64,000 nt of DNA from Candidatus Hydrothermarchaeota archaeon. GTDB lineage: Archaea > CAYFZR01. Under the pieces are notes generated by a model that had not been told where the DNA came from, ran no database searches, and saw nothing but the letters and a program-made list of their open reading frames with translations. Where the stretch lies: assembly GCA_046760505.1 (NCBI GenBank), contig JBHIEG010000008.1:12200-76199 (forward strand). Direction: 5' to 3'. Made by a program: the position numbers and the translations under genes. Below are positions 93-12,156 of this stretch, in pieces (the stretch's first letter is position 1; each line of letters opens with the position of its first letter).

Positions 93-983
93 ATGACCTA
101 TGCACTCTTTTTAGGATGCATTGCGCCTTTAAGATATCCAGACATCGAAAAAGCAACTAGAATATCTCTAAAGAATTTGGGAATTGAAATCAAAGATATG
201 GAAGGCGCTACCTGCTGTCCGGCAGGAGCATCCTTTAACTGTATTGACGAGATTACATCCCTCGCTATATCGGCAAGAAATCTATCTATAGCAGAGGAAA
301 TGAAATGTGATGTAGTTACGATATGCAGCGGGTGCTTTTCTACTCTTAAAGAAGCAAACAAGAAACTTAGAGAGAATAATGAGAAAAGAAAATTGGTTAA
401 TGAGGTTCTTGGCGAAATTGGAAGAGCATACAAAGGCAAAACGGAAATAAAACATCTTGTAGAATTATTATATGATGATGTAGGCATCGAAAGGATTAGA
501 GATTCAATTAAAAGACCTTTAAACGGTATTAAAATTGCACCACACTACGGATGCCATATACTAAGACCCTCCATATTTCTGGATGTAGACAATCCTGAAA
601 AGCCCAGAAAGCTTGATGAATTAATCAATGCACTAGGTGCCAAAAGCTTATCATACCAACACAAATTGATGTGCTGCGGGGCAGGAGGAGGGCTCCGCGC
701 ATATGACCATAATTTTGCAACGAGAATAGTAACCAGAAAATTAAATGCCATCAAAGAAGCTGGAGCCCATGCTATCGTAGACGTTTGTCCTTTCTGCCAT
801 CTTCAATTTGATGTATCTCAAGCAGAACTCAATGAAAAGAAAGGATACGAGTTTAAAATCCCTGTCTTTCATTATACACAATTACTCGCATTAGCCCAAG
901 GAAATGATCCTAAAGAAATCATTAGCGTTTCAAAAATACCGAGAGAAAATATAATTAATAAAATTAAGGTAGAGGCGAAATGA
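93..983 (+). CDS. hdrB: CoB-CoM heterodisulfide reductase subunit B
   Basis: Two CCG-type domains (FLGC..TCCP..CSGC; HYGCH..CCGAGG..CPFCHLQFD); GGAGG RBS. Confidence 0.93.
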   Translation: MTYALFLGCIAPLRYPDIEKATRISLKNLGIEIKDMEGATCCPAGASFNCIDEITSLAISARNLSIAEEMKCDVVTICSGCFSTLKEANKKLRENNEKRKLVNEVLGEIGRAYKGKTEIKHLVELLYDDVGIERIRDSIKRPLNGIKIAPHYGCHILRPSIFLDVDNPEKPRKLDELINALGAKSLSYQHKLMCCGAGGGLRAYDHNFATRIVTRKLNAIKEAGAHAIVDVCPFCHLQFDVSQAELNEKKGYEFKIPVFHYTQLLALAQGNDPKEIISVSKIPRENIINKIKVEAK

Positions 984-984
984 A

Positions 985-1404
985 ATGGATGATTTCGAAC
1001 CAAATATAATAGGTTTTTTGTGCAGATGGTGTTCTTATGCAGGAGCAGACCTCGCGGGAATAGACAGAATGCACTATCCTCCGAATGTAAGAGTTATCAG
1101 AGTTATGTGTTCAGGAAGAATAGATCCATTATTCGTTTTAGAGGCATTTAGACAGGGTATAGACGGCGTGTTAATAATGGGATGTCATCCGGATGAATGT
1201 CATCATGTCTCTGGAAATCTCAAGGCACTCAAAAGAGTTACACTCCTAAAAAAATTGATGGAACAACTTGGATTAAATCCAAAAAGGCTGAGGCTTGACT
1301 GGATCTCTGCTTATGAAGGGGGTAAGTTTGCAAAGGTTTCAACTGAAATGGTTCAAGAGATAAAGAAAATAGGTCCAAATCCTTTAAAGGAGGATTTAAG
1401 ATGA
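985..1404 (+). CDS. mvhD: Methyl-viologen-reducing hydrogenase delta subunit
   Basis: FLCRWCSYAGADLAG, RVMCSGR, GCHPDECH motifs; all Cys, no in-frame TGA. Confidence 0.95.
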   Translation: MDDFEPNIIGFLCRWCSYAGADLAGIDRMHYPPNVRVIRVMCSGRIDPLFVLEAFRQGIDGVLIMGCHPDECHHVSGNLKALKRVTLLKKLMEQLGLNPKRLRLDWISAYEGGKFAKVSTEMVQEIKKIGPNPLKEDLR

Positions 1405-2387
1405 AAAATTCAGATAATAAACTCAAATTAGCAATAGGTCTTGGTGCTACCTGCTCTGGATGTGATATTGCACTCCTTGACATAAAGGAAAAAATCTTAG
1501 GCCTTCTCGAAATAGCCGACATAATTTTCTGGCCTACTGGAATGGATGGAAAACAAAGAGATCTCGAGAAAATGAGAGATGAGAGCATCGATATCGGAAT
1601 ATACCATGGTTCGGTAAGAAATTCTGAAAATGAGGAAATAGCCAAGTTAATCAGAGAAAAATCCAAAATTCTGATAGCTTTTGGATCATGTGCATGCTAC
1701 GGTGGAATTCCGGGTCTAGCTAATATATCAAACAAATCTGAAATATTTGAAATAGTTTACAAAAAAACAAAGTCTACTGTAAATCCTGAGTTTGTCACGC
1801 CTCAAAAAAACCTGAGTTTCAATGGAAGAATCCTTAGTTTGCCTGAGTTTTATGATACGGTAAGATCGCTTGATCAAACCGTCGAAGTTGATTACTATCT
1901 TCCTGGTTGTCCTCCTCCTGTTCAGTTAATAGAACTTGCTATTTCCGCTATAGCGAGCGGAGAATTACCTCCTAAAGGATCTGTAATAGCCTCAGATAAA
2001 TCCCTTTGTGAGGAATGTCCAAGGGAAATAGAAGACAAAAAAATCTCCTTTATACATAGAATTTATGAGATAGTTCCAGATCAAAAGAGATGTTTACTAG
2101 AACAGGGAATTATTTGCTTAGGTCCTGCCACAAGAGGAGGCTGCGAGGCAAAATGTATCAAGGTGAATATGCCTTGCGAGGGATGTCTGGGCCCTTTACC
2201 AAACTTAAAGGATCAAGGAAGCTCTATTTTGAGTGCAATAGCATCTATACTTGCCGTTGAAGATGAAAAACAGTTGGCTGAAGATGAGTTGAAAAAGTTA
2301 GTTGAAAAGATCTTTGATCCCCTGGGTACATTCTATAGATTTACGCTTCCTGTTGCCCCCATTAATAGAAGGGTTGAGGATGGTTGA
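1401..2387 (+). CDS. mvhG: F420-non-reducing [NiFe] hydrogenase small subunit
   Basis: CSGC, GSCACYGG, PGCPP, CEEC, CLLEQGIICLGPATRGGC..C..PCEGC. Confidence 0.92.
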   Translation: MKNSDNKLKLAIGLGATCSGCDIALLDIKEKILGLLEIADIIFWPTGMDGKQRDLEKMRDESIDIGIYHGSVRNSENEEIAKLIREKSKILIAFGSCACYGGIPGLANISNKSEIFEIVYKKTKSTVNPEFVTPQKNLSFNGRILSLPEFYDTVRSLDQTVEVDYYLPGCPPPVQLIELAISAIASGELPPKGSVIASDKSLCEECPREIEDKKISFIHRIYEIVPDQKRCLLEQGIICLGPATRGGCEAKCIKVNMPCEGCLGPLPNLKDQGSSILSAIASILAVEDEKQLAEDELKKLVEKIFDPLGTFYRFTLPVAPINRRVEDG

Positions 2388-3879
2388 AATGCCTAAGATA
2401 TTCGATGAGCCTGAGACAATTACTACAAGAAATATAACCATAAAGCCGATTACCCGCTTAGAAGGTCACGGAAAGATCGACATATTCCTAAACGATCAGG
2501 GAAACGTTAGGGACGCATACTTCCAAGTTGTTGAACTACGCGGTTTTGAAAGATTTTGCATAGGAAGACCTGTTGAAGAACTTCCCAGAATAACTCCAAG
2601 AATATGTGGTGTTTGTCCCGGTCCCCATCACATGGCTTCTACGAAAGCAACTGATGCTGTATTTGGAGCAGAAGTACCAGAGCCGGCAAAGAAGTTAAGG
2701 GAACTTTACTACATGGCTCATATTATTCACAGCCACATAGCGCATTTCTATGTACTTGCTGCTCCTGACTTCATACTGGGTCCTGCAGAAGATCCAAGCA
2801 AAAGAAATATTGTAGGAGTGATAGAAGCAGTAGGAAAAGATACCGTTAACGATGTTATTACGCATAGAGCATATGCACAAAAGATTCAAGAGATAATAGG
2901 TGGTAGAGCAACACATTCTGTTTGCGGCCTGCCAGGGGGAATGTCTAAGGCAATAAGTGAGGAGGAAAGAAAAGAAATCGAAACGATGGCAAGATCTTGC
3001 GTTAACTTCTCGAGAAGATCTATCCAGATTTTTGAAGATTTGGTTCTCGGTAATGATACCTATGTAGATATTATTAAGGGAGACATATACAAGAATCAAA
3101 CATATTACATGGGTCTTGTTGATGAAGAGAACAGGCTAAACCTGTATGATGGAAAGATAAGAGTTGTTGATCAGAAAGGAAATGAATTCACTAAATTTGA
3201 GGCAAAAGATTATTTGGAACATATCGCCGAGCATGTAGAGCCCTGGACCTATCTAAAGTTTCCATATCTAAAGGCTATCGGATGGAAAGGTCTAATCGAT
3301 GGTCAGGAGAGTGGAGTATATAGAGTAGGACCTCTTGCAAGACTTAATGTAGCAGATGAAATTCCAACACCGCTTGCTCAAGAGGAATACGAGAAAATGA
3401 TTGAGATTCTTGGAGGAAAACCTGTTCATGCGACTCTTGCATATCACTGGGCAAGATTGATTGAACTGTTGTATGCAAGTGAGCGGTTGCATGAACTCTC
3501 AGTGGATCCAGAAATAACGAGTAATGATATTAGGGGAAAATTAGGCGAACCGAGCGAAGGAGTAGGCGTAATCGAGGCACCAAGAGGGACACTTTTCCAT
3601 CACTATATCACAGATGAAAGTGGTATCGTAAAAGAAATAAATTTAATAGTTGCGACAGGAAATAATAACGCTGCGATATGCATTTCGGTTAAAAAAGCAG
3701 CAGAATCTCTTATAAGAGACTGGAAGGTTAGTAACGGACTTTTAAATATGATAGAAATGGCTTTTAGAGCCTACGATCCTTGTTTCGCCTGCGCAACTCA
3801 TGCATTAGGTCGCATACCTCTAGATGTTCGGATATATGATAACGAAAAGAGATTGTTCAAAAGACTTACCAACTTTTGA
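2380..3879 (+). CDS. mvhA: F420-non-reducing [NiFe] hydrogenase large subunit (group 3c-like)
   Basis: TRLEGHG, L1 RICGVC, EAPRGTLFHHY, L2 DPCFACATH plus C-terminal extension; ATG 2380 preferred over TTG 2302. Confidence 0.93.
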   Translation: MVEMPKIFDEPETITTRNITIKPITRLEGHGKIDIFLNDQGNVRDAYFQVVELRGFERFCIGRPVEELPRITPRICGVCPGPHHMASTKATDAVFGAEVPEPAKKLRELYYMAHIIHSHIAHFYVLAAPDFILGPAEDPSKRNIVGVIEAVGKDTVNDVITHRAYAQKIQEIIGGRATHSVCGLPGGMSKAISEEERKEIETMARSCVNFSRRSIQIFEDLVLGNDTYVDIIKGDIYKNQTYYMGLVDEENRLNLYDGKIRVVDQKGNEFTKFEAKDYLEHIAEHVEPWTYLKFPYLKAIGWKGLIDGQESGVYRVGPLARLNVADEIPTPLAQEEYEKMIEILGGKPVHATLAYHWARLIELLYASERLHELSVDPEITSNDIRGKLGEPSEGVGVIEAPRGTLFHHYITDESGIVKEINLIVATGNNNAAICISVKKAAESLIRDWKVSNGLLNMIEMAFRAYDPCFACATHALGRIPLDVRIYDNEKRLFKRLTNF

Positions 3880-4224
3880 TTATAACATGCTTTCTAGCTT
3901 TTCCTTGGCATCGTTCATCTCTAGACGTATCAAACCGATATTTACATCTCTGTCAGTGATTACCGCCAGTATGGCTTTTCCTACATCCAGCACGAGAATC
4001 TTACCGTTTTCGGCTTCTATCATTGCTTGAGTTAACTTACCTTGTCCGGTCCTTTCAGCGGACTTTTCCCCAGTACCAAAGATGGCTGCACTCATCGCTC
4101 CAATCATATCTCCATCCATCGATTTTGGGAGTGCATTAGCTATTAGTAAGCCATCCTTTCCAACGATGAGAGAGCCAACTATGCCGTCTACCTTGGTCAA
4201 ATCTGAGAGCACGACATCTATCAT
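3880..4224 (-). CDS. Roadblock/LC7 (MglB-like) domain protein
   Basis: DGIVGSLIVGKDGLLIA...AMSAAIFGTGE...IEAENGKILV...NIGLIRLEM is a typical Roadblock pattern. Confidence 0.9.
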   Translation of the reverse strand: MIDVVLSDLTKVDGIVGSLIVGKDGLLIANALPKSMDGDMIGAMSAAIFGTGEKSAERTGQGKLTQAMIEAENGKILVLDVGKAILAVITDRDVNIGLIRLEMNDAKEKLESML

Positions 4225-4228
4225 AACA

Positions 4229-4732
4229 TCACCTCATGGCTTCCTCCAGTATCTTATCGATGAACTGTTCATCTGGATCTTTTAGTCTATATTTTTTCAT
4301 AAGCGTCTTTCTATCAATTTCGAAGGCTCCAATCAACCTTTCAAAGAATTTTTTACATTCTGTTTTTAGGGAGCCGTTTCTCTGAATGAATGATAACGTT
4401 GTTTTGAAATTGGCTTCTTCAGGATCATATACTATAAATTCAAATTCTTCTTTTACATCTTCTACCAATTTTTCACCTGCAATATCTCCAACCAGTCCTC
4501 CGGCATCGGAATAAAATACTGATAGTGCTCTGCCTTCTTTGAATATTATCCAGACATCTCGATTGATACTTTTTTTAGGGAAAAATATCCGGAGATAACC
4601 ACTAAATTTATCTTTTCTCAGTTTCTTAAGTTTATTCACAAATTCGCAGGGATCGATAATTCTTTCTTCCTCTAATATATGGGATTTACTCATTACCCAT
4701 GATAAGTTTGAGAGATAGTCATTCTTCTTCAT
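4229..4732 (-). CDS. DUF2226-like protein
   Basis: FSGYLRI...WIIFKEG and C-terminal DRKTLMKKYRLKDPDEQFIDKIL signature resemble DUF2226. Confidence 0.7.
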   Translation of the reverse strand: MKKNDYLSNLSWVMSKSHILEEERIIDPCEFVNKLKKLRKDKFSGYLRIFFPKKSINRDVWIIFKEGRALSVFYSDAGGLVGDIAGEKLVEDVKEEFEFIVYDPEEANFKTTLSFIQRNGSLKTECKKFFERLIGAFEIDRKTLMKKYRLKDPDEQFIDKILEEAMR

Positions 4733-4977
4733 CTCATCCTCTCTATCATTTTAATTGCATTTGTATCCCAGTAATATACCTTTACCTCCACTGTTTCATT
4801 AAAGTCTATGGCTTCTGCGGGACATCTATCAATGCAATTCAAACAAATTATGCAGTCTTCCTTCCTCTTTATATCAGGAACATCATCCTCGTTTTTTTCA
4901 AACACTGTGGTTGGACAAATATCTACGCATATGTTGCATTTTTTACAAAGGTCTTTGTCTATGAAGATTTCAGGCAT
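4729..4977 (-). CDS. 2x[4Fe-4S] ferredoxin
   Basis: CKKCNICVDICP and CIICLNCIDRCP. Confidence 0.93.
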   Translation of the reverse strand: MPEIFIDKDLCKKCNICVDICPTTVFEKNEDDVPDIKRKEDCIICLNCIDRCPAEAIDFNETVEVKVYYWDTNAIKMIERMR

Positions 4978-6397
4978 TATTTACCTCCTTTGAATATCTT
5001 TTAATGTAATGCAAATTCCCCTCGTGGTCAAATATTTCGATTTCACTACAAAATCTGCCTATTCTATGTGTAGCACATGAGAGACAAGGATCATGGGCTC
5101 TGACTGCAATTTCTATTAGATTTAACTTATTTTCATCCACTTTGCCGTCGCTGATTGCTTTTCTAGAAGCGTCTAAAATTGCCTGATTAATCGCCTTGTT
5201 GTTAATCTGCGTAGCCACTATTATATTCGCCCCCTTTATCCTACCCTTTTCATCTATCTCATAATGATGTATTAAAGTACCTCTAGGTGCCTCAACATGA
5301 CCTATTCCCACATTTTTGTACTCTCCTATATCTGCCCTGTATTCTCCATTCAAATCCTCAGATGATAGTTCTAGAGCCTTTTCAGATGCATACAACAACT
5401 CTATGAGCCTAGCATAATGATAAAGTAGAGTTGCGTGAGCCGGTCTCCCATAAGTCTCTCTAAAAATCTCAAGTTCTTCCTGTGCTCTTGGAGTTTCCAT
5501 TTTTTCAGTAAGATTTATCCTAGCAAGTGTATTGACTCTAAAAGTGCCATTTTCATAGCCCGCTTTCTTATAGTAGGGGAACTTCATATACGTCCATTTT
5601 TCAGCCCTCTCTGCGATGAATTCAATATAATCTTGAGTCTTGAATTTCTCAATCAAATTGCCTTCAGGATCCATTATACAAAGGTCTCCTTCATAATAAT
5701 TCATGCAGCCATTTTTTAGGGTTCCAAGGAAGTATGTTTCAAAGACTGCTAAATTTTCAATTAATTCATTGTACTTCTCAAATATACCTTTTCCTAATTC
5801 TAAAGTGAATTCTGCTAGATCTAAGGATTCTTTTGCGAGTTCTCTAACCTTTAATAAGGTTTTTTCATCTGGTAAATTTGCAACTCCGCCAGGAACAGCT
5901 ACGATTGGATGTATTTGCTGACCGCCGAGTAATTTGTTAATTGTCTGACCATTACTCCTTAATTTAAGGGCTTTTTTTGCCAATTCAGGTTGTTTTTTCG
6001 CAATACCTAAAACATTTCTCTCCTCGCTTGGAGAATCCGGACCCATTATAAAATCAGGTCCAGCCAGAATGAAAAAAGAAAGTGCATGACTGTGAATCAT
6101 ATGACCAAGGTACATCAATTCTCTAATTTTTTTTGCTGTTTCAGGGATTTCAACATCAAATAAATCATCCACAGCTTTTGCGCTTGCTAGATGATGGGCT
6201 GAAGGACAAACACCACATATTCTTGGAGTTATTCTCGGCATTTCCTCAACACGATAACCTTCCAAAAATTTTTCAAACCCTCTAAGTTCCATGACTTGGA
6301 ATCTGGCATCGTTTACTTCCCCTTTATCATCTAAGAAGAGAGAAACTTTGGCATGGCCTTCAATTCTTGTTACAGGCTCAATAACAATTTTTTTCAT
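4970..6397 (-). CDS. Second group-3 [NiFe] hydrogenase large subunit (MvhA-like)
   Basis: TRIEGHA, RICGVC, EAPRGTLIHHY, DPCLSCATH plus C-terminal extension. Confidence 0.92.
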   Translation of the reverse strand: MKKIVIEPVTRIEGHAKVSLFLDDKGEVNDARFQVMELRGFEKFLEGYRVEEMPRITPRICGVCPSAHHLASAKAVDDLFDVEIPETAKKIRELMYLGHMIHSHALSFFILAGPDFIMGPDSPSEERNVLGIAKKQPELAKKALKLRSNGQTINKLLGGQQIHPIVAVPGGVANLPDEKTLLKVRELAKESLDLAEFTLELGKGIFEKYNELIENLAVFETYFLGTLKNGCMNYYEGDLCIMDPEGNLIEKFKTQDYIEFIAERAEKWTYMKFPYYKKAGYENGTFRVNTLARINLTEKMETPRAQEELEIFRETYGRPAHATLLYHYARLIELLYASEKALELSSEDLNGEYRADIGEYKNVGIGHVEAPRGTLIHHYEIDEKGRIKGANIIVATQINNKAINQAILDASRKAISDGKVDENKLNLIEIAVRAHDPCLSCATHRIGRFCSEIEIFDHEGNLHYIKRYSKEVNNA

Positions 6398-7308
6398 AAC
6401 TCCTTCACCATCATTATTCTTGGCTTGGCAAGCATTATTTTTGAAGCAGCTGTAAATGTGTAAGGCATCTTTGAAGCCTCTTTCATGTGGTTAATCACTT
6501 CTTCTAGTTCTATATTTGTTATGGCACTAACTAGTTCAGCTAGAGAATAACCAACATCCTTGAATGGATTTTTCAATATTTTCTCTGATGGTCCATTACA
6601 TCCATTGCAAGGGATACCGTTGCTCGGACATTTTGCATTGCATCCGCCCATTGTAACGGATCCCATGCAGATCAATCCATGGCTTATCAAGCATTTCTCA
6701 TCGGTTATTTTCCCCTCATAACTTCTTCTCAATCTATCTAACTCAACCCTTTCCATGATTCGATTACACTCAGAACAAACGGTTTTTCTTTTTTCTCCTT
6801 TTTTATTCTCTATTACATTAGATATTGCAGTTACTATGTTCTCAGGTGTGGGGGGGCAACCAACTATGTAGAAATCCACATCCACTACTTCATCTAACGT
6901 CTTAACACTTCTTGTTAGTTCTGGCAAACCTTCTTCTTCACTCGGACACACTCCAGTATATTCAGCAGTTACAACGTCCCTATAAACTTTCTTTTTCAAT
7001 TCATCAGGAGGATAAAGTCCTCCAAGCGAGAATAAACCTCCATGACAGGCACATGTACCAAATGCAATTAGTGTATCTGCCTTCTCTCTCATTATCTTGG
7101 CTTTTTCTTCGTTTTCTGAATTTCTTATGCACCCACTCACTATGGCAACGTCACACTTAGGAAGTTCTTTTATGTCCATAAGTACTGGAGAATAAACGAC
7201 TTCTACCTGTTCTAGGAGAGATAATAGATTTTCATCTAAGTCTAGGATTCCGATCTCGCATCCCCCGCAGATTGCTAACCATTCTGTTGCCAATGTCAAT
7301 TTTGACAT
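6394..7308 (-). CDS. Second [NiFe] hydrogenase small subunit (MvhG-like)
   Basis: WLAICGGCE, GTCACHGG, VGCPP, CSEC, CLISHGLICMG..GGC..C..PCNGC. Confidence 0.9.
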   Translation of the reverse strand: MSKLTLATEWLAICGGCEIGILDLDENLLSLLEQVEVVYSPVLMDIKELPKCDVAIVSGCIRNSENEEKAKIMREKADTLIAFGTCACHGGLFSLGGLYPPDELKKKVYRDVVTAEYTGVCPSEEEGLPELTRSVKTLDEVVDVDFYIVGCPPTPENIVTAISNVIENKKGEKRKTVCSECNRIMERVELDRLRRSYEGKITDEKCLISHGLICMGSVTMGGCNAKCPSNGIPCNGCNGPSEKILKNPFKDVGYSLAELVSAITNIELEEVINHMKEASKMPYTFTAASKIMLAKPRIMMVKEL

Positions 7309-7782
7309 TTAATCCTCCTCAAAGATCAATTTTTTTAGACAGGCGTTTATTCCCGCCTTCTCAATCTCTAAATCAACTCTTTTCCCTAGAACTACACCAA
7401 GTGCTCCAACAATGTACCCATGAGTCAAATAACAAAGTATCCCTTCTTGTTCAATTCCTTCTCTCATTAGAGTATTCCTGATGGGACAATGTCTGAATAC
7501 TAGCTCACAACACAATCTCCCATCTTCGTCGATAAACATATATTCATCTCTTTCACTTCTTTTAAAAAGTTCAATTTCCCATGCACCTTCAAATAGCCTG
7601 CTAATCTCATCAATTGCTTCATTCAGATCTTCTGTTCTTCTAGCCTTAGATGCAAGCTCAATTCCAAGGGATTTTCCCGAATTATAGCTCATTGACTTTG
7701 CCCCAAAGCCGAGAGTATCCTCCAATGACGTAGCAAAACTACCCAAAATCGTCATTAGGAAATGGGTATCTTTTTCTATCAT
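7309..7782 (-). CDS. V4R-like small-ligand/metal-binding domain protein
   Basis: YNSGKSLG helix, then FRHCP..LCYLTHGYIVGAL..AC pattern typical of V4R. Confidence 0.7.
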   Translation of the reverse strand: MIEKDTHFLMTILGSFATSLEDTLGFGAKSMSYNSGKSLGIELASKARRTEDLNEAIDEISRLFEGAWEIELFKRSERDEYMFIDEDGRLCCELVFRHCPIRNTLMREGIEQEGILCYLTHGYIVGALGVVLGKRVDLEIEKAGINACLKKLIFEED

Positions 7783-7824
7783 TTTGCTTTACCCCATTTT
7801 ATTTTACCCTTTTTATCCTGCTCT

Positions 7825-8268
7825 TTACTCTACTTTCTTCACACATTTTTCATTAGTCTCAACTATCTTCACATCTCTCTTTTCATTGGTAAGATGGCTC
7901 AATGTTCCCGCAATGATACCATTTACCAAAAAACAAGGTGCTCCTCCTTTTTCAACACCTCTTTCTTTAAGAGCATTACCAAGCGGGCAGGAATTAATTT
8001 TTAGAGTTATGCTTCCTTCATCTGACTCTATTTGATAGTCTTTTAACCCTATTATATCTAACAACTCTTTTATTTGTTCCAAAATATTTTCTTTAGTTAT
8101 CAGTCTTGAATATCTCTCCCCATATCTTTTACTTGATTGATAACAAATTCCCTTGCCACCAGCCCCTATAAGATCCTCTACCGTCTCATCCACTGCTGTT
8201 ATAAGTATTTTAAGTGCCTCATGCATTCTTGCATAATCATCCTCATCAGGAGTTACGTGGAGAATCAC
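7825..8268 (-). CDS. V4R-like domain protein, paralogue of the downstream gene
   Basis: INSCP..PCFLVNGIIAGTL..KC; start uncertain (GTG 8268 chosen, ORF open to 8367). Confidence 0.68.
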   Translation of the reverse strand: MILHVTPDEDDYARMHEALKILITAVDETVEDLIGAGGKGICYQSSKRYGERYSRLITKENILEQIKELLDIIGLKDYQIESDEGSITLKINSCPLGNALKERGVEKGGAPCFLVNGIIAGTLSHLTNEKRDVKIVETNEKCVKKVE

Positions 8269-8493
8269 CGTTATCCCTTTATAATTTAATATAATGAGTT
8301 TTATATACTTTATCTCAACGATTATGGTTAAAATCCTCAAAAATATAGCGCTTATTTTCAATATCAAGAAATAAAATTACAAAGTAGTAATTATTTCCAT
8401 TGAAGTATGTGAAATAACATTTAAGAATCAGTAAAAATAAAAACAAAAGATTCAAATTCCATAAAAGTATAGTAAGATGTGCTGGTGAAGGAA

Positions 8494-9201
8494 ATGAAGC
8501 AATCAAACTTAAATACCGCGGAAGAATGGACTGAGAAGGGATACTCCTTTGAAAAGGATGGCTTGTTTGAAAAAGCAGTTGAATGTTATGATAAAGCGTT
8601 AGAGATCGATTCCAATTATGCAAAGGCATGGAATAATAAGGGAACCTCTCTTTTTACATTGAGAAAGTTTGGAGAAGCAATAAGATGTCTTGACAAGGCC
8701 TTAGAAATAGATCCAGATTATGCTGAGGCATGGAATAATAAAGGGATATGTCTTTTTTCCCTAAGAATGTTCGATGAAGCACTTAAATGCTTTGATAAAG
8801 CGCTGGAAATCGATCCAGAATCGCCAAACGTTTGGTTAAATAAAGGCAATGTCCTGCAAAACATGGGTAAGTACGATCAAGCCATAACATCATACGATAT
8901 GGCTCTGAAATTAAATCCAAACTTGAAATGGGCATGGAGCAGTAAGGGATACACCCTCCATGGCATTGGTAATTTGAAGGAGGCAATAATCTGCTACGAA
9001 AAAGCCTTGGAGTTAGATCCCAAGCTTGCTGGAGTATGGAACAACAAGGGACTTGCTCTGAAGGATTTGGGCAGGTTGGAAGAGGCTTTAGAATGCTTCA
9101 ACAATGTTTTAGAGCTTGAACCCTCCCTCACTGTTGCCAAAGCTAATAGAGATATGGTATTAGACCTTATCAAGAAACGAGAAAAATACAGAGTTGATTA
9201 A
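8494..9201 (+). CDS. Tetratricopeptide repeat protein
   Basis: About six 34-aa repeats AWNNKG..L..L....EA..CFDKALE.DP; GGTGA RBS before ATG 8494. Confidence 0.93.
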   Translation: MKQSNLNTAEEWTEKGYSFEKDGLFEKAVECYDKALEIDSNYAKAWNNKGTSLFTLRKFGEAIRCLDKALEIDPDYAEAWNNKGICLFSLRMFDEALKCFDKALEIDPESPNVWLNKGNVLQNMGKYDQAITSYDMALKLNPNLKWAWSSKGYTLHGIGNLKEAIICYEKALELDPKLAGVWNNKGLALKDLGRLEEALECFNNVLELEPSLTVAKANRDMVLDLIKKREKYRVD

Positions 9202-9203
9202 TA

Positions 9204-10985
9204 CTAAGCCTCTTCTTTCCTAACTTCCTCTACTCTCTTCAACTGTGCCCTGTACATCTCAACTATTTCCTCTACGCTCGTTGCTTCATTTGGTCCTTTG
9301 TCTATTCTCCATCTACCGGTAAATCTTGGAAATCTAACTGCAATCCCCGAATCCTCCCTGATTCTTCCAAATGCACATGTGTGAACAGGACTTAGTGTAA
9401 GCTCATCTCCTATTATCTCCATTACCAAATTTGGCTCAAACCAAACATCCGCCTCGAGTTCACTCTCCACGCTTGGATGTTTCTCGTCGATTTTATACGG
9501 GAGAAGCATCTCTGGAATTTTTTCCAGATCATCATCGGTAAAGCCGCTGCCAACCTTACAAACAGTATAAAACTTTTGTTCTTCTCTATCAATGACGCCT
9601 GTTAATAATGCTCCATAAGTACCTGATCTTTTTCCTCTACCTACAAAAGCTCCAACAACAACGACATCTATGGGTTCGATCATCATGGATTGATAAGAAC
9701 GTTTTAGTTTGATCCAGAGCCATCCTCTTGCTCCGGCTTGGTAGACTCCGTCCAATGATTTCAGTATAAGTCCTTCACAGCCGGATGCAACTGCAAGTTC
9801 AAAGAAATTTTCAATTTCTTTGGGATCATCTGTAATTAAGGATTTTGCACATCTTATCCGTGTATTTTCTTTAACAATGCTTTTAAGTCTATTTCTTCTA
9901 TCCATGTAACTTTTTTGTGTCAGATCTTCTCCGTCTATGTAGAGTAGATCAAACAGATATAGGCTTATTGGAAATTTTTCCTTTGCCTCCTCAATTCCGT
10001 GTTTCCTTCTTCTGTGCATAAGCTGCTGGAAGGGCAGTAAATCTTCTGTATCAGGATCTACCGCAACACACTCCCCTTCTATAATTGCGTCTCTTGCCGT
10101 TATATTTTTTTTAATCAGTTCGCTCACGTCAGGGTATTGATTTGTGATATTCTCAAGTCTTCTTGAGAAAAGAGCAATATTGTCTTTATTTTTATGTATC
10201 TGGATCCTCTCCCCATCGTATTTCCATTCACAAGCAGCTTTTCCACCAAGTTTTTCAAGAACCTCTTCTGGCGTAACAAGTCTTTGAGCCATCATCATTC
10301 TTATCGGTCTTCCAACCTTTACATGGTAGTTTCTCATTCCCTCAAGACCTTCTCTTGCTAGGGTCTTGGCTACGTCACCAAGATCCGATGTCAAGTTGTA
10401 TGCCCTCTCAATGAGTTCTCTGTTCGCTTTATCATTGGTATACGCAATCGAAAGTGCATCTAGGATTGTCATATCTGCTATACCAAGTCTTAGTTTTCCT
10501 AGAACTGCTCTTATAATGTATTTTGCCTCTTTTGGCGTTGCATCCGCCAATAAACCGGATAAAAGCCTTATCTTTAAATCTACACTTCCTGGACCCGTCG
10601 ATCTCGCTATCTTATCAAATGTCTCATAAACTTCCTTTACCGTTAAAGGCTTTGCGAAAAGAGTAGACTGCTTTTTACTTTTTGCTAGATGTTCAGCCGT
10701 TAAACCCAGGTCTCCTCTTTTCTTGAGATCCTTCTCTATTTCCTTAGTGCTGACACCAAATGCACCCGATATGGCACGAATAGCAAGTTTCTCTGCGATG
10801 CCCATTTCTAAATCCACGAAATCTGGATAAAGCTTTCCCTGAGTGAGATATGCGACCTTGTCTACAATATCTTCATCGCACTTTTTGAATAAATCTACCA
10901 AGTAATCGGTCATTTCAAGTCTTTTCGTAGTTGACTCTATGTGCTCATATACAGCTACCAACTCTGAATATTTCAAATGGGACAC
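9204..10985 (-). CDS. lig: ATP-dependent DNA ligase
   Basis: KYDGER motif I, EGLILK, WIKLK, VRFPRF; full-length DBD-AdD-OB architecture. Confidence 0.97.
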   Translation of the reverse strand: MSHLKYSELVAVYEHIESTTKRLEMTDYLVDLFKKCDEDIVDKVAYLTQGKLYPDFVDLEMGIAEKLAIRAISGAFGVSTKEIEKDLKKRGDLGLTAEHLAKSKKQSTLFAKPLTVKEVYETFDKIARSTGPGSVDLKIRLLSGLLADATPKEAKYIIRAVLGKLRLGIADMTILDALSIAYTNDKANRELIERAYNLTSDLGDVAKTLAREGLEGMRNYHVKVGRPIRMMMAQRLVTPEEVLEKLGGKAACEWKYDGERIQIHKNKDNIALFSRRLENITNQYPDVSELIKKNITARDAIIEGECVAVDPDTEDLLPFQQLMHRRRKHGIEEAKEKFPISLYLFDLLYIDGEDLTQKSYMDRRNRLKSIVKENTRIRCAKSLITDDPKEIENFFELAVASGCEGLILKSLDGVYQAGARGWLWIKLKRSYQSMMIEPIDVVVVGAFVGRGKRSGTYGALLTGVIDREEQKFYTVCKVGSGFTDDDLEKIPEMLLPYKIDEKHPSVESELEADVWFEPNLVMEIIGDELTLSPVHTCAFGRIREDSGIAVRFPRFTGRWRIDKGPNEATSVEEIVEMYRAQLKRVEEVRKEEA

Positions 10986-11022
10986 CTAAGAAATATTTTT
11001 ATCAAATTAGGTAATACTCTTT

Positions 11023-12156
11023 TTGGTTGACATGGAATTAATAGAAGATCGTGTACTCCTGTTACTCTCGATTAAAGAAAAAGGCAAAAAAATTAGCATT
11101 GATCACATTGCTGAAAAAGTAATACGCGACGAAAAAAACTGCATAAATGAATCGCAAATAAAAGATGCAATAGATCGTCTTATCTCCAAAGGACTCATCA
11201 GCGAGAGTAACAAAAATTATTATGCAACAGAAAGAGGAATTCAAGAGATAAAAGAGAGAGTAAAATCGATTGGAAATAAACTCAATCTCTCCTATCGTAT
11301 GATTTTAACAGCAAAGGAATATTATCCCCAGATCGCTGATGCAATAATTCCTTTTTTAAAAGAAAGAGCAACAAGTGTTGTAAAGATTTTTAGCGATGAA
11401 AAAGATCCTGTTAATAAAATTAAGCCTTTATTTGTAAGATATGCAAAGTATAAGCCTAAACCAGTAAATATTCAAATAAATAATACCAAAGATTTAATTA
11501 AATACGTGGAAAGCCACGCGATAGACTTCATACCCTATATACATAGGATTAATACTAAAGATCCTGATTGGTTCGTCTTGGATTTAGATGCTGGTCCCTC
11601 CTTTGATAAACATGAAAGAGGCTTTTACTTAGTTAAATTGACCGCCAAAAAGTTAGTAGAGACTCTAGAAGAATATGAAATATCCTCTTGTATAAAGTTT
11701 AGTGGATCCAGAGGTATCCAAGTATGGTCGAGTCTGGAGAACAGTAAATTGCCCTCAGGAGATATATTCTCGCTTTATAGAAAATTTGCGCAACAAATTC
11801 AGACAAAATTGGAGGAAAAATTACAGGAGTTACCCTCAAAAACCCTTAAAGAGTTCTACGAAATTGTAAAGACAGGAAAACCTATAACCACCTCTACAGT
11901 CGCGAAAAAAGCCGAAAGATCTGATCAAATCTTAATCGACTGGAGCACGATGAAGCCATCCGGCGACGTAAGAGCCCCTTTTAGCCTGCACTATAAAACT
12001 ACCTTGGTTTCTTGCCCAATAGATCCAAAACGCCTGCTCCTGTTTGAATTATCAGAGGCAAGAACTGAAAATGTTGTGGATAATCTGGAGAGGTTAATCG
12101 ACATATTCAAACTGGAAAAATCTGATCCTTCTCAAATCATAAAAGAAGTATCATAA
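11023..12156 (+). CDS. Winged-helix fused LigD/Prim-Pol-type archaeo-eukaryotic primase-polymerase
   Basis: PDWFVLDLD (motif I), KFSGSRGIQVW (motif II), ILIDW, RAPFSLH, VSCPI; N-terminal ~85 aa HTH-like. Confidence 0.78.
   Translation: MVDMELIEDRVLLLLSIKEKGKKISIDHIAEKVIRDEKNCINESQIKDAIDRLISKGLISESNKNYYATERGIQEIKERVKSIGNKLNLSYRMILTAKEYYPQIADAIIPFLKERATSVVKIFSDEKDPVNKIKPLFVRYAKYKPKPVNIQINNTKDLIKYVESHAIDFIPYIHRINTKDPDWFVLDLDAGPSFDKHERGFYLVKLTAKKLVETLEEYEISSCIKFSGSRGIQVWSSLENSKLPSGDIFSLYRKFAQQIQTKLEEKLQELPSKTLKEFYEIVKTGKPITTSTVAKKAERSDQILIDWSTMKPSGDVRAPFSLHYKTTLVSCPIDPKRLLLFELSEARTENVVDNLERLIDIFKLEKSDPSQIIKEVS

Follow-up and report, generated by a model that had tools for sequence, protein, structure and literature searches.

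The window analysed here, a stretch of 64,000 nucleotides (nt) of a 2.17-Mb archaeal metagenome-assembled genome (MAG; G000:C8:12200-76199 on contig JBHIEG010000008.1, with G000 denoting the source genome), contains a cassette of seven open reading frames (ORFs) within 3880-8268, all on the minus strand. The cassette encodes an Mvh-type [NiFe]-hydrogenase in which genes for V4R, ferredoxin, and Roadblock/PATAN-type proteins replace mvhD and hdr, and it constitutes a distinct and conserved architecture. Mvh-type hydrogenases are regarded as a single functional class that passes electrons from H2 to heterodisulfide reductase (Hdr)-based bifurcation; a second widely conserved architecture is now shown inside group 3c. 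The new conserved cassette suggests an H2-responsive regulatory or ferredoxin-linked enzyme that has not been described before. An earlier reading of the DNA alone (the sequence-only reading) knew of no such system, and full-text searches of the literature found neither a paper linking V4R, Roadblock, or PATAN with a [NiFe]-hydrogenase nor one using the term DUF2226; supplementary gene-neighbourhood tables could hold the linkage, namely those of Asgard and two-component-system surveys, a ParA preprint, and hydrogenase surveys.

Building blocks of the cassette

The cassette starts with V4R1 (7825-8268, 147 aa), which has a GTG start at 8268 and a longer ORF with a TTG start extending to 8367. 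It is followed by V4R2 (7309-7782, 157 aa), which abuts the gene of the small hydrogenase subunit of the MvhG/VhuG type (6394-7308, 304 aa). The large subunit of the MvhA/VhuA type (4970-6397, 475 aa), a ferredoxin with two [4Fe-4S] motifs (4729-4977, 82 aa), a DUF2226-like protein that is probably PATAN-like (4229-4732, 167 aa), and a Roadblock/LC7/MglB-family protein (3880-4224, 114 aa) complete the unit. Going from V4R1 to Roadblock, the junctions are a 42-nt gap, a 0-nt gap, overlaps of 4, 8, and 4 nt, and a 4-nt gap. The co-oriented set of seven overlapping or abutting genes is therefore present as first described, with junctions ranging from -8 to +42 nt.

Both hydrogenase subunits are recognized by Pfam, the large one by NiFeSe_Hases and the small one by Oxidored_q6. 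The best NCBIfam model is VhuA for the large subunit (428.7 bits, under the equivalog cut-off of 800) and VhuG for the small subunit (232.5 bits). Among PDB entries, the large subunit matches best the MvhA chains 9sw2_F (432 bits) and 5odc_F (431 bits), followed by a bifurcating-type NiFe enzyme (418 bits), an NAD-reducing type (341 bits), and group-3b-type chains (153 bits). Its motifs RICGVCP (C61, C64) and DPCLSCATH (C438, C441, H444) contain five residues that are invariant across 24 homologues, and a 31-residue C-terminal tail follows the processing residue His444. In the small subunit, twelve Cys are invariant across 27 V4R-linked homologues, a number that would be enough for three [4Fe-4S] clusters. 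With the Ni-Fe ligands and cluster Cys kept and with MvhA/VhuA and VhuG as best matches, the call of an intact group-3 pair stands: the cassette hydrogenase is intact, of the Mvh/group-3c type, and predicted to be cytosolic and catalytically competent. It is one of only two [NiFe] enzymes of the source genome as judged by large subunits, the other being the neighbouring Mvh copy, to which it is 44% (large subunit, MvhA) and 37% (small subunit, MvhG) identical. A gene for a HycI-type protease is present in the source genome.

The two V4R proteins are less evident at the profile level. V4R1 reaches E 0.012 and 16.2 bits with Pfam V4R (PF02830), under the cut-off of 31, and V4R2 has no Pfam match, V4R included. 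Within the V4R2 family, 2/31 members match Pfam V4R at E ≤ 0.01 and 6/31 match Pfam ATC_hydrolase weakly (best E 8.2e-6). At the level of the predicted structure, the V4R/Bet3 fold of V4R2 is confirmed: an AlphaFold2 model from a 31-row alignment has a predicted local distance difference test score of 96.1, and Foldseek ranks the V4R sensor domains of MopR, PoxR, and DmpR first (E 7e-6, TMq 0.64), ahead of Bet3/TPC6, Thor-TRAPPC3, and MJ1460. V4R1 is a paralogue of V4R2 with 27% identity and matches the V4R2-family profile A1 at E 4.2e-30. Hence, the V4R label first given to both is based on the fold in the case of V4R2 and on a profile in that of V4R1, but both proteins fall below the Pfam cut-off.

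The residues C99 and C117 of V4R2 are invariant, and C148 is nearly so. According to passages in Galperin et al. (PMC5847659), a three-Cys signature is carried by V4R, MetOD1, and ATC hydrolase, and passages in PMC10933270 report that the three Cys of the V4R fold bind structural Zn in PoxR and Thor-TRAPPC3 and that V4R domains bind small molecules. C99, C117, and C148 match both the signature and this Zn site and form a putative metal site. The family is small: an exhaustive HMMER search gave 61 representatives at E ≤ 1e-3 among 1.84 billion, and a word-index homology search gave 2 matches. The position of the V4R2 gene is that of mvhD in canonical operons.

The ferredoxin belongs to the Fer4 families in Pfam and shows two CxxCxxCxxxCP motifs in its translation. 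In P0132, a metagenome protein of 231 aa, a 2x[4Fe-4S] ferredoxin (residues 8-63) is naturally fused to a V4R2-like domain (residues 82-231), and ferredoxin and V4R are therefore argued to work as one unit. A complex prediction of the large subunit, the small subunit, and V4R2 scored 0.00 in two runs without controls and is evidence neither for nor against binding.

The cassette Roadblock matches Pfam Robl_LC7 with E 4.5e-18 and 65.2 bits against a cut-off of 23, which, together with the two motifs of the ferredoxin, bears out the initial calls of both proteins; with the NCBIfam MglB equivalog it reaches 18.7 bits, the cut-off being 200. The DUF2226 call also lies above its Pfam cut-off (25.8 bits versus 22), but only the C-terminal part is matched, covering profile positions 131-176 of 252. 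A word-index search for close relatives of this protein returned only the query itself. It is probably PATAN-like, a label that the models and profile comparisons leave unconfirmed: its Atlas model has template modelling (TM) scores of 0.57-0.64 to DUF2226 clusters and 0.54-0.57 to PatA_N/DUF4388 clusters; hhalign against bacterial DUF4388 gives E 6.8e-4 at only 27% probability and aligns a shared N-terminal motif; and the other hhalign comparisons give 3% and 15% probability. Pfam yields no match to DUF4388 in the cassette protein even at E 10, a threshold at which DUF4388 is seen only in the protein of the distant archaeon G034 (E 0.073). DUF4388 is the PATAN domain, and mglA/mglB homologues often adjoin PATAN genes, as stated in passages of 10.1101/2021.06.11.447907.

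Bacterial relatives carry the two modules in one protein. By Pfam, the bacterial locus L026 encodes a DUF4388-Roadblock fusion of 253 aa directly upstream of the cluster, and L023, from a Desulfopila sp. MAG, encodes a divergent Response_reg-DUF4388-Roadblock fusion of 410 aa. The source genome holds five Roadblock genes and eight DUF2226-like matches; among its Roadblock paralogues, the cassette copy is the best BLASTP match of the bacterial receiver (REC)-PATAN-Roadblock protein and of the long Roadblock protein of the f57 genomes. In the 223-aa Roadblock protein of Methanoculleus, the N-terminal 115 residues reach a score of at most 0.84 in an Atlas feature search, which is a lead only; at this score, the label of a DUF2226-like-Roadblock fusion for Methanomicrobiales was left unconfirmed.

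The same kinds of proteins are also encoded apart from a hydrogenase. A triad of genes for DUF2226 (170 aa), Roadblock (123 aa), and a double V4R protein (323 aa, Pfam V4R 4.1e-18) is found on G000:C5 (L016 15225-17034, minus strand) and is kept in the sister species on G001:C50 (L015 15384-17213). About 5 kb from the triad lie a further single V4R gene and a DUF2226 gene of 266 aa. As this hydrogenase-free triad shows, the three kinds of proteins stay linked even without the enzyme. In G034, one strand holds V4R, small subunit, ferredoxin, and large subunit, followed by five ORFs and then MinD, Roadblock, and DUF2226.

Conservation of the V4R-hydrogenase linkage

Scanning 185,579 species' genomes with a 12-row V4R2 alignment yielded 233 relatives; the loci of the best 80 of these 233 were analysed, their ORFs being compared with the query proteins by BLASTP. 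These best 80 loci come from Methanomicrobiales (Methanoculleus, Methanofollis, Methanolinea, and Methanogenium, including isolates) and Desulfobulbales (Desulfopila, Desulfocapsaceae, and others), and also include one Geothermobacter and one Polyangia MAG. A V4R2-like gene followed by the small and large subunits is found in 70/70 loci that have at least 2.6 kb downstream. Partner genes were counted in the 58 of the best 80 loci that have room on both sides. All 58 contain a ferredoxin homologue, 47 a Roadblock-domain ORF, 38 HycI, 34 MinD/ParA, and 18 a second V4R; mvhD is found in 0/58 and hdr likewise in 0/58. The commonest order in Methanomicrobiales is HycI-MinD-ferredoxin-V4R-small-large-Roadblock, followed by a longer Roadblock protein, and in Desulfobulbales V4R-small-large-ferredoxin-V4R-HycI. 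A divergent REC-PATAN-Roadblock gene is present in seven Desulfobulbales-type loci and an unfused PATAN-Roadblock gene in the Geothermobacter MAG.

A second sample of 401 archaeal genomes, chosen independently of the cassette, was searched with a V4R2-family profile. Matches at E < 1e-36 occur in 13 places, ten of which adjoin hydrogenase subunits (two in the window and one each in G095, G376, G318, G338, G117, G138, G106, and G034). The three exceptions are a paralogue in G000:C5 and its G001 orthologue, both at the DUF2226-Roadblock-V4R loci described above, and G104, where no subunits were seen. G381 contains two tandem V4R genes beside subunits (E 3.2e-38 and 2.9e-10), and a weaker profile match in G219 is also linked to subunits. 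The neighbourhood comparison called for at the outset thus finds a linkage that is not unique to the source genome but recurs in all 70 loci and in eight other genomes of the second sample.

Mvh-like loci without V4R show the opposite arrangement. Within 5 kb, 30 such loci contain mvhD in 21 cases, hdr genes only in four, and neither in five; V4R or Roadblock is found within 5 kb in 0/30. Hence, V4R adjacency and MvhD adjacency are mutually exclusive among the loci examined. Methanomicrobiales and Desulfobulbales, along with other archaea and bacteria in a scattered distribution, share the core of V4R, small subunit, and large subunit with ferredoxin. A canonical Mvh locus (mvhD-mvhG-mvhA) is also present in the source genome, in G034, in two f57 genomes (G376, G095), and in Desulfopila; that of G106 reads hdrA-mvhG-mvhA-hdrCB, with no separate mvhD ORF seen.

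A quick maximum-likelihood tree was built from 76 large subunits, of which 33 are V4R-linked, 15 MvhD/Hdr-linked, seven without context genes, and 21 context-less database proteins; thinning at 80% identity had reduced the rows from 114 to 56, the weak 23% match L156_599 was dropped, the 21 database proteins were added, and an Frh-like outgroup was used. All sequences fall into one radiation with a poorly supported backbone, on which the V4R label has to change three times. Support is good for a clade of Methanomicrobiales (17 rows) and for one of the Desulfobulbales type (11 rows). The approximately unbiased test does not reject the grouping of all 33 V4R-linked rows in one clade (p 0.50); neither the tree nor this test establishes a separate clade of V4R-linked enzymes. 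The cassette enzyme nests, by this sequence comparison, within group 3c.

The cassette adjoins a canonical operon and behaves as a unit. The end of the operon, hdrB-mvhD-mvhG-mvhA, occupies 93-3879 on the plus strand (Pfam CCG, FlpD, Oxidored_q6, and NiFeSe_Hases), and hdrA and hdrC lie on the contig just upstream of the window, giving the order hdrA-hdrC-hdrB-mvhD-mvhG-mvhA. Further upstream of hdrA are hypF, a HycI-type protease gene, hypD, hypE, and hypA, in an island that includes G000:C8:4137-12291 (L004). The cassette converges on the operon tail to tail, the stop of mvhA (3879) abutting that of Roadblock (3880), and therefore sits in a hydrogenase island. The absence of MvhD and Hdr, as first noted, is true inside the cassette, but the complete hdrACB-mvhDGA operon directly adjoining it had been missed. 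Four public DNA runs of one hydrothermal-vent metagenome study hold the window, and contigs from all four span 2589-6233 (X4: 2589-6199; X2: 2589-5700). The junction at 3879/3880 is therefore not an assembly artefact of the record, with the qualification that two of the four bridging runs may be the source of the assembly itself.

In G001, the only congeneric genome compared, hdrACB-mvhDGA is kept at 82-91% identity, and about 57 nt separate mvhA from a tetratricopeptide repeat (TPR) gene that in the window lies beyond the cassette. Only one MvhA-like match is found in G001. The mvhA-TPR adjacency thus marks the 4.6-kb cassette (about 3883-8450, upstream region included) as a clean indel. The seven genes were gained or lost together and form an accessory unit that is not essential to the genus.

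Some related clusters show features of their own. Two V4R-linked large subunits contain an in-frame TGA near the C-terminal motif (L014 7809-8981 on G034:C18; L124 8122-9339 on G381:C10) and may be selenocysteine ([NiFeSe]) versions; the small subunit of G381 (L124) has one in-frame stop as well. In the draft assembly of Methanogenium cariaci JCM 10550 (L090 10475-12836), the small- and large-subunit genes of the V4R-linked cluster are in several pieces, reflecting either frameshifts or sequencing errors. L023 of the Desulfopila sp. MAG also encodes, at 3309-6625, a histidine kinase of the dCache type and a sigma-54-dependent response regulator; both genes lie upstream, about 2-6 kb away from the REC-PATAN-Roadblock gene and the V4R-hydrogenase cluster. 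In canonical Mvh loci of other archaea (L148, L149, L151), genes for HycI and a MinD/ParA-type ATPase follow mvhA. The two may serve group-3c enzymes in general as a maturation pair, and MinD/ParA was rejected as a specific NTPase partner of Roadblock because the pair is not confined to the V4R-linked type.

Proposed function and its alternatives

The cassette may encode an H2/redox-responsive regulatory hydrogenase and not a feeder of heterodisulfide reductase, a reading that we hold tentatively and with somewhat less than even confidence. It is put forward because three kinds of signalling-type proteins recur beside the enzyme, receiver domains are fused to them in some relatives, the enzyme is not redundant with Mvh, the cassette behaves as an accessory unit, and CorR (below) provides a precedent. 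Herein, H2 oxidation at the Ni-Fe site would set the redox state of the ferredoxin, which would take its electrons from the small subunit and be physically coupled to V4R, a ligand-sensing fold with a putative three-Cys metal site. The state of V4R would be read by the PATAN-like/Roadblock pair, proteins that in other systems serve small NTPases and response regulators as switches or adaptors. The downstream target could be a small GTPase of the genome, a ParA/MinD ATPase, or another protein. In its furthest form, which we regard as doubtful, the regulatory reading describes a third independent invention of hydrogenase-based H2 sensing, with an Mvh-derived enzyme, a ferredoxin-V4R head, and a PATAN/Roadblock relay to NTPases or response regulators; the cassette would then be a mobile one, common to Methanomicrobiales, Desulfobulbales, and deep-branching vent archaea, with a receiver domain fused to the relay in some bacteria.

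Compared with MvhAGD-HdrABC (group 3c, 5odc), the cassette enzyme has the same best matches for the large and small subunits, the same Ni-Fe ligands and twelve cluster Cys, a predicted cytosolic location, and a processing tail. It differs by the lack of mvhD and hdr, by V4R at the mvhD position and a small ferredoxin at that of the polyferredoxin, and by the attached Roadblock and PATAN-like genes; furthermore, the cassette type coexists with true Mvh in most carriers checked. HoxBC/HupUV are H2-sensing [NiFe]-hydrogenases of group 2b that act through the HoxJ-HoxA kinase relay, and the characterized sensor HoxC is devoid of a C-terminal processing tail. Common to HoxBC/HupUV and the cassette is a hydrogenase dimer encoded, in the cassette, with putative signal-transduction proteins, and receiver-domain proteins stand beside the bacterial V4R-linked versions; that the cassette enzyme signals the presence of H2 instead of serving metabolism is plausible. 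In contrast, the cassette enzyme belongs to group 3c, all its best matches being group-3 enzymes and none of the sensory group 2b; its large subunit is not shortened but keeps 31 residues after His444; its relatives are accompanied by HycI; no histidine kinase is found in the unit; and its partners are V4R, ferredoxin, PATAN-like, and Roadblock proteins.

The V4R protein CorR of Thermococcus onnurineus is described in passages of PMC6557876 as the CO-sensing half of CorQR beside a carbon monoxide dehydrogenase-hydrogenase cluster. As far as that account goes, both systems place a stand-alone archaeal V4R protein with a proposed gas- or redox-sensing role beside a hydrogenase cluster, but CorR has a LysR-type DNA-binding partner and adjoins a membrane-bound group-4 enzyme, whereas the V4R of the cassette accompanies a soluble enzyme of the Mvh type together with a ferredoxin and has no DNA-binding protein. 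With MglA-MglB and PatA-type regulators, the cassette shares a Roadblock/MglB-family protein and, probably, an adjacent PATAN-like one, PATAN being fused to Roadblock in bacterial relatives; it lacks an MglA-type GTPase, however, and its partner set is a redox enzyme. V4R2 has the fold and the conserved three-Cys site of PoxR/MopR/DmpR and Bet3/Thor-TRAPPC3, but differs from these in being a stand-alone protein of about 150 aa without AAA+ or DNA-binding output and in belonging to a small family.

Several observations weigh against a regulatory role. The C-terminal processing tail is kept, and 38/58 related loci have their own HycI. No kinase or DNA-binding output is found in the cassette by Pfam, and no Roadblock-domain ORF is seen in the searched span of the 11 remaining loci of the 58, mostly those of the Desulfobulbales type with the order V4R-small-large-ferredoxin-V4R-protease. 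The large subunit of the window falls into a polytomy inside the group-3c radiation and is not separated from ordinary MvhA, and its nearest relatives (52-54% identity) include a Hydrothermarchaeales enzyme (52-53%) without a V4R neighbour. The sequence would fit information flowing either way, from H2 toward Roadblock or from Roadblock toward the enzyme.

As for the Roadblock-GTPase module postulated in the sequence-only reading, no small GTPase is found in or next to the cassette, nor any Ras/Arf family match on contig C8, and the Roadblock-GTPase step is therefore without gene-context support. Ras/Arf-type matches of the source genome lie on C44 (two), C6, C10, and weakly on C5, and those on C44 and C6 adjoin other Roadblock paralogues. 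The latter (G000:C44:4196-7666 and G000:C6:65955-66717), small Ras/Arf-like GTPase genes directly beside Roadblock paralogues, are candidate MglA/MglB-type pairs in their own right; two of the Ras/Arf-like matches sit in long ORFs of 381 and 409 aa. The closest MinD of the source genome (51-56% identity) is encoded on another contig. Thus, the notion of a repurposed sensor keeps a unit distinct from canonical Mvh, a conserved linkage, and bacterial fusions of the signalling type, but finds no GTPase in its gene context and has to accommodate an enzyme with tail and catalytic features retained.

The cultured Methanoculleus species add a further point on this side. Methanoculleus palmolei has no MvhA-like enzyme besides the V4R-linked one, and its mvhD is located 425 kb away. 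The Methanoculleus enzyme is treated as Mvh in passages of PMC2686161 and PMC5684752; the latter, a paper on biogas isolates, lists MvhADG for Methanoculleus, including strain L21-II-0, which corresponds to locus L092. Many Methanomicrobiales are without MvhAG according to passages in Kaster et al. 2011. The 'Mvh' of cultured Methanoculleus appears to be the V4R-linked type, and from its solitary presence in M. palmolei and its name in the literature, a plain metabolic role there is therefore plausible.

Such a role is the content of the alternative closest to the regulatory reading, which we consider possible though well short of even confidence: a metabolic, ferredoxin-linked hydrogenase that passes electrons between H2 and the small ferredoxin, the latter at a miniature MvhB position, with V4R, the PATAN-like protein, and Roadblock controlling activity, assembly, or location of the enzyme according to a ligand. 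Information would here flow toward the enzyme. This alternative fits better than a sensor with the processing tail, the dedicated HycI of the relatives, and the full conservation of catalytic and cluster ligands. The ferredoxin present in 58/58 loci and the small-molecule binding of V4R domains agree with it as well. In canonical operons, the mvhB position follows D-G-A, and the bacterial order V4R-small-large-ferredoxin parallels the canonical D-G-A-B. Three signalling-type protein kinds would, however, be unusual in one enzyme operon, the bacterial receiver-domain fusions point to signal transduction, and the cassette is dispensable between congeneric species. In addition, reduction of ferredoxin by H2 without coupling is thermodynamically unfavourable at low H2.

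That the cassette encodes an ordinary second Mvh isoenzyme, whose subunits dock on the MvhD/HdrABC next door or elsewhere and whose flanking small genes are unrelated, is unlikely. The hdrACB-mvhDGA operon abuts the cassette, so that coupling of the cassette enzyme to Hdr is possible; both subunits match MvhA/VhuA and VhuG best, the tree places the enzyme inside the group-3c radiation, and M. palmolei, with its only MvhA-like gene V4R-linked, its mvhD elsewhere, and the name Mvh in the passages cited, is in accord with this view. Against it stands the contrast between the V4R-linked loci (V4R-small-large 70/70, ferredoxin 58/58, mvhD or hdr 0/58) and the canonical ones (mvhD 21/30), which argues that the neighbours in the cassette are therefore not incidental. 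Furthermore, most carriers already have a canonical Mvh, and the identity to the neighbouring copies, 44% and 37%, is only low.

Decidedly unlikely, in our view, is an H2-dependent small-molecule reductase, in which electrons would pass from the hydrogenase through ferredoxin to V4R as the substrate-binding or catalytic terminal subunit. The ferredoxin-V4R fusion P0132 and the two V4R copies per cluster in the source genome, G381, and Desulfobulbales would suit such an enzyme, as would the weak ATC_hydrolase matches of six of the 31 family members; the V4R superfamily, in passages of PMC5847659, includes members held to be enzymatic, with ATC hydrolase sharing the three Cys. The same three Cys bind structural Zn in PoxR and Thor-TRAPPC3, however, as given in PMC10933270, and the Roadblock and PATAN-like proteins would be left unexplained. 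There is, moreover, no candidate substrate, and to our knowledge no redox cofactor site is known in V4R.

Roadblock proteins regulate NTPases, and the last alternative takes V4R, Roadblock, and the DUF2226-like protein (with MinD/ParA and HycI elsewhere) as maturation or assembly helpers that build or place the hydrogenase and stay outside the working enzyme. Although HycI and MinD/ParA flank 38/58 and 34/58 clusters, and ParA genes adjoining hypA have been suggested in a preprint to replace HypB there, this is very unlikely: the HycI-MinD pair is found behind canonical Mvh as well (L148, L149, and L151) and is not type-specific, the cassette of the source genome has neither HycI nor MinD, and the translational coupling of V4R with the small subunit and its fusion to ferredoxin in P0132 suggest a stoichiometric partner.

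The distinction matters beyond the window. The V4R-linked type in Methanoculleus bears on the long-standing question of how electrons are supplied to Hdr in Methanomicrobiales, and if the enzyme is not an Hdr partner, metabolic models of biogas methanogens need revision. If it is a sensor, as the regulatory reading has it, archaea would have their first proposed H2-sensing system, and prokaryotic V4R, Roadblock, and PATAN proteins, the functions of which are mostly obscure, would gain a tangible biochemical role. H2 availability would then be linked to cell behaviour through the Roadblock and V4R/Bet3 folds, which eukaryotes use in Ragulator and TRAPP. The question can be put to a direct test in cultured carriers (Methanoculleus, Methanofollis, and Desulfopila aestuarii).

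Upstream region and other features of the window

The cassette is preceded by a non-coding stretch at 8269-8450 (minus strand). Reading the sequence, an A/T-rich, TATA-like word (gtatataaaa) is found at about 8299-8308, 30-40 nt 5' of the GTG start of V4R1, and is a putative promoter element. A promoter/terminator scan gave 21 sites versus 17.5 expected, but its consensus is that of bacterial sigma-70 and is not informative for an archaeon. The GC skew is negative throughout 3501-8500. At position 8296, within the putative promoter stretch, a short contig of one run shows G>A and another run a 1-nt deletion, which represents strain variation.

Beyond the cassette, at 9204-12156, an ATP-dependent DNA ligase (593 aa) is encoded divergently from a LigD-type primase-polymerase protein with a winged-helix N terminus (377 aa). 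The two resemble an end-joining-type pair, here in an archaeon.

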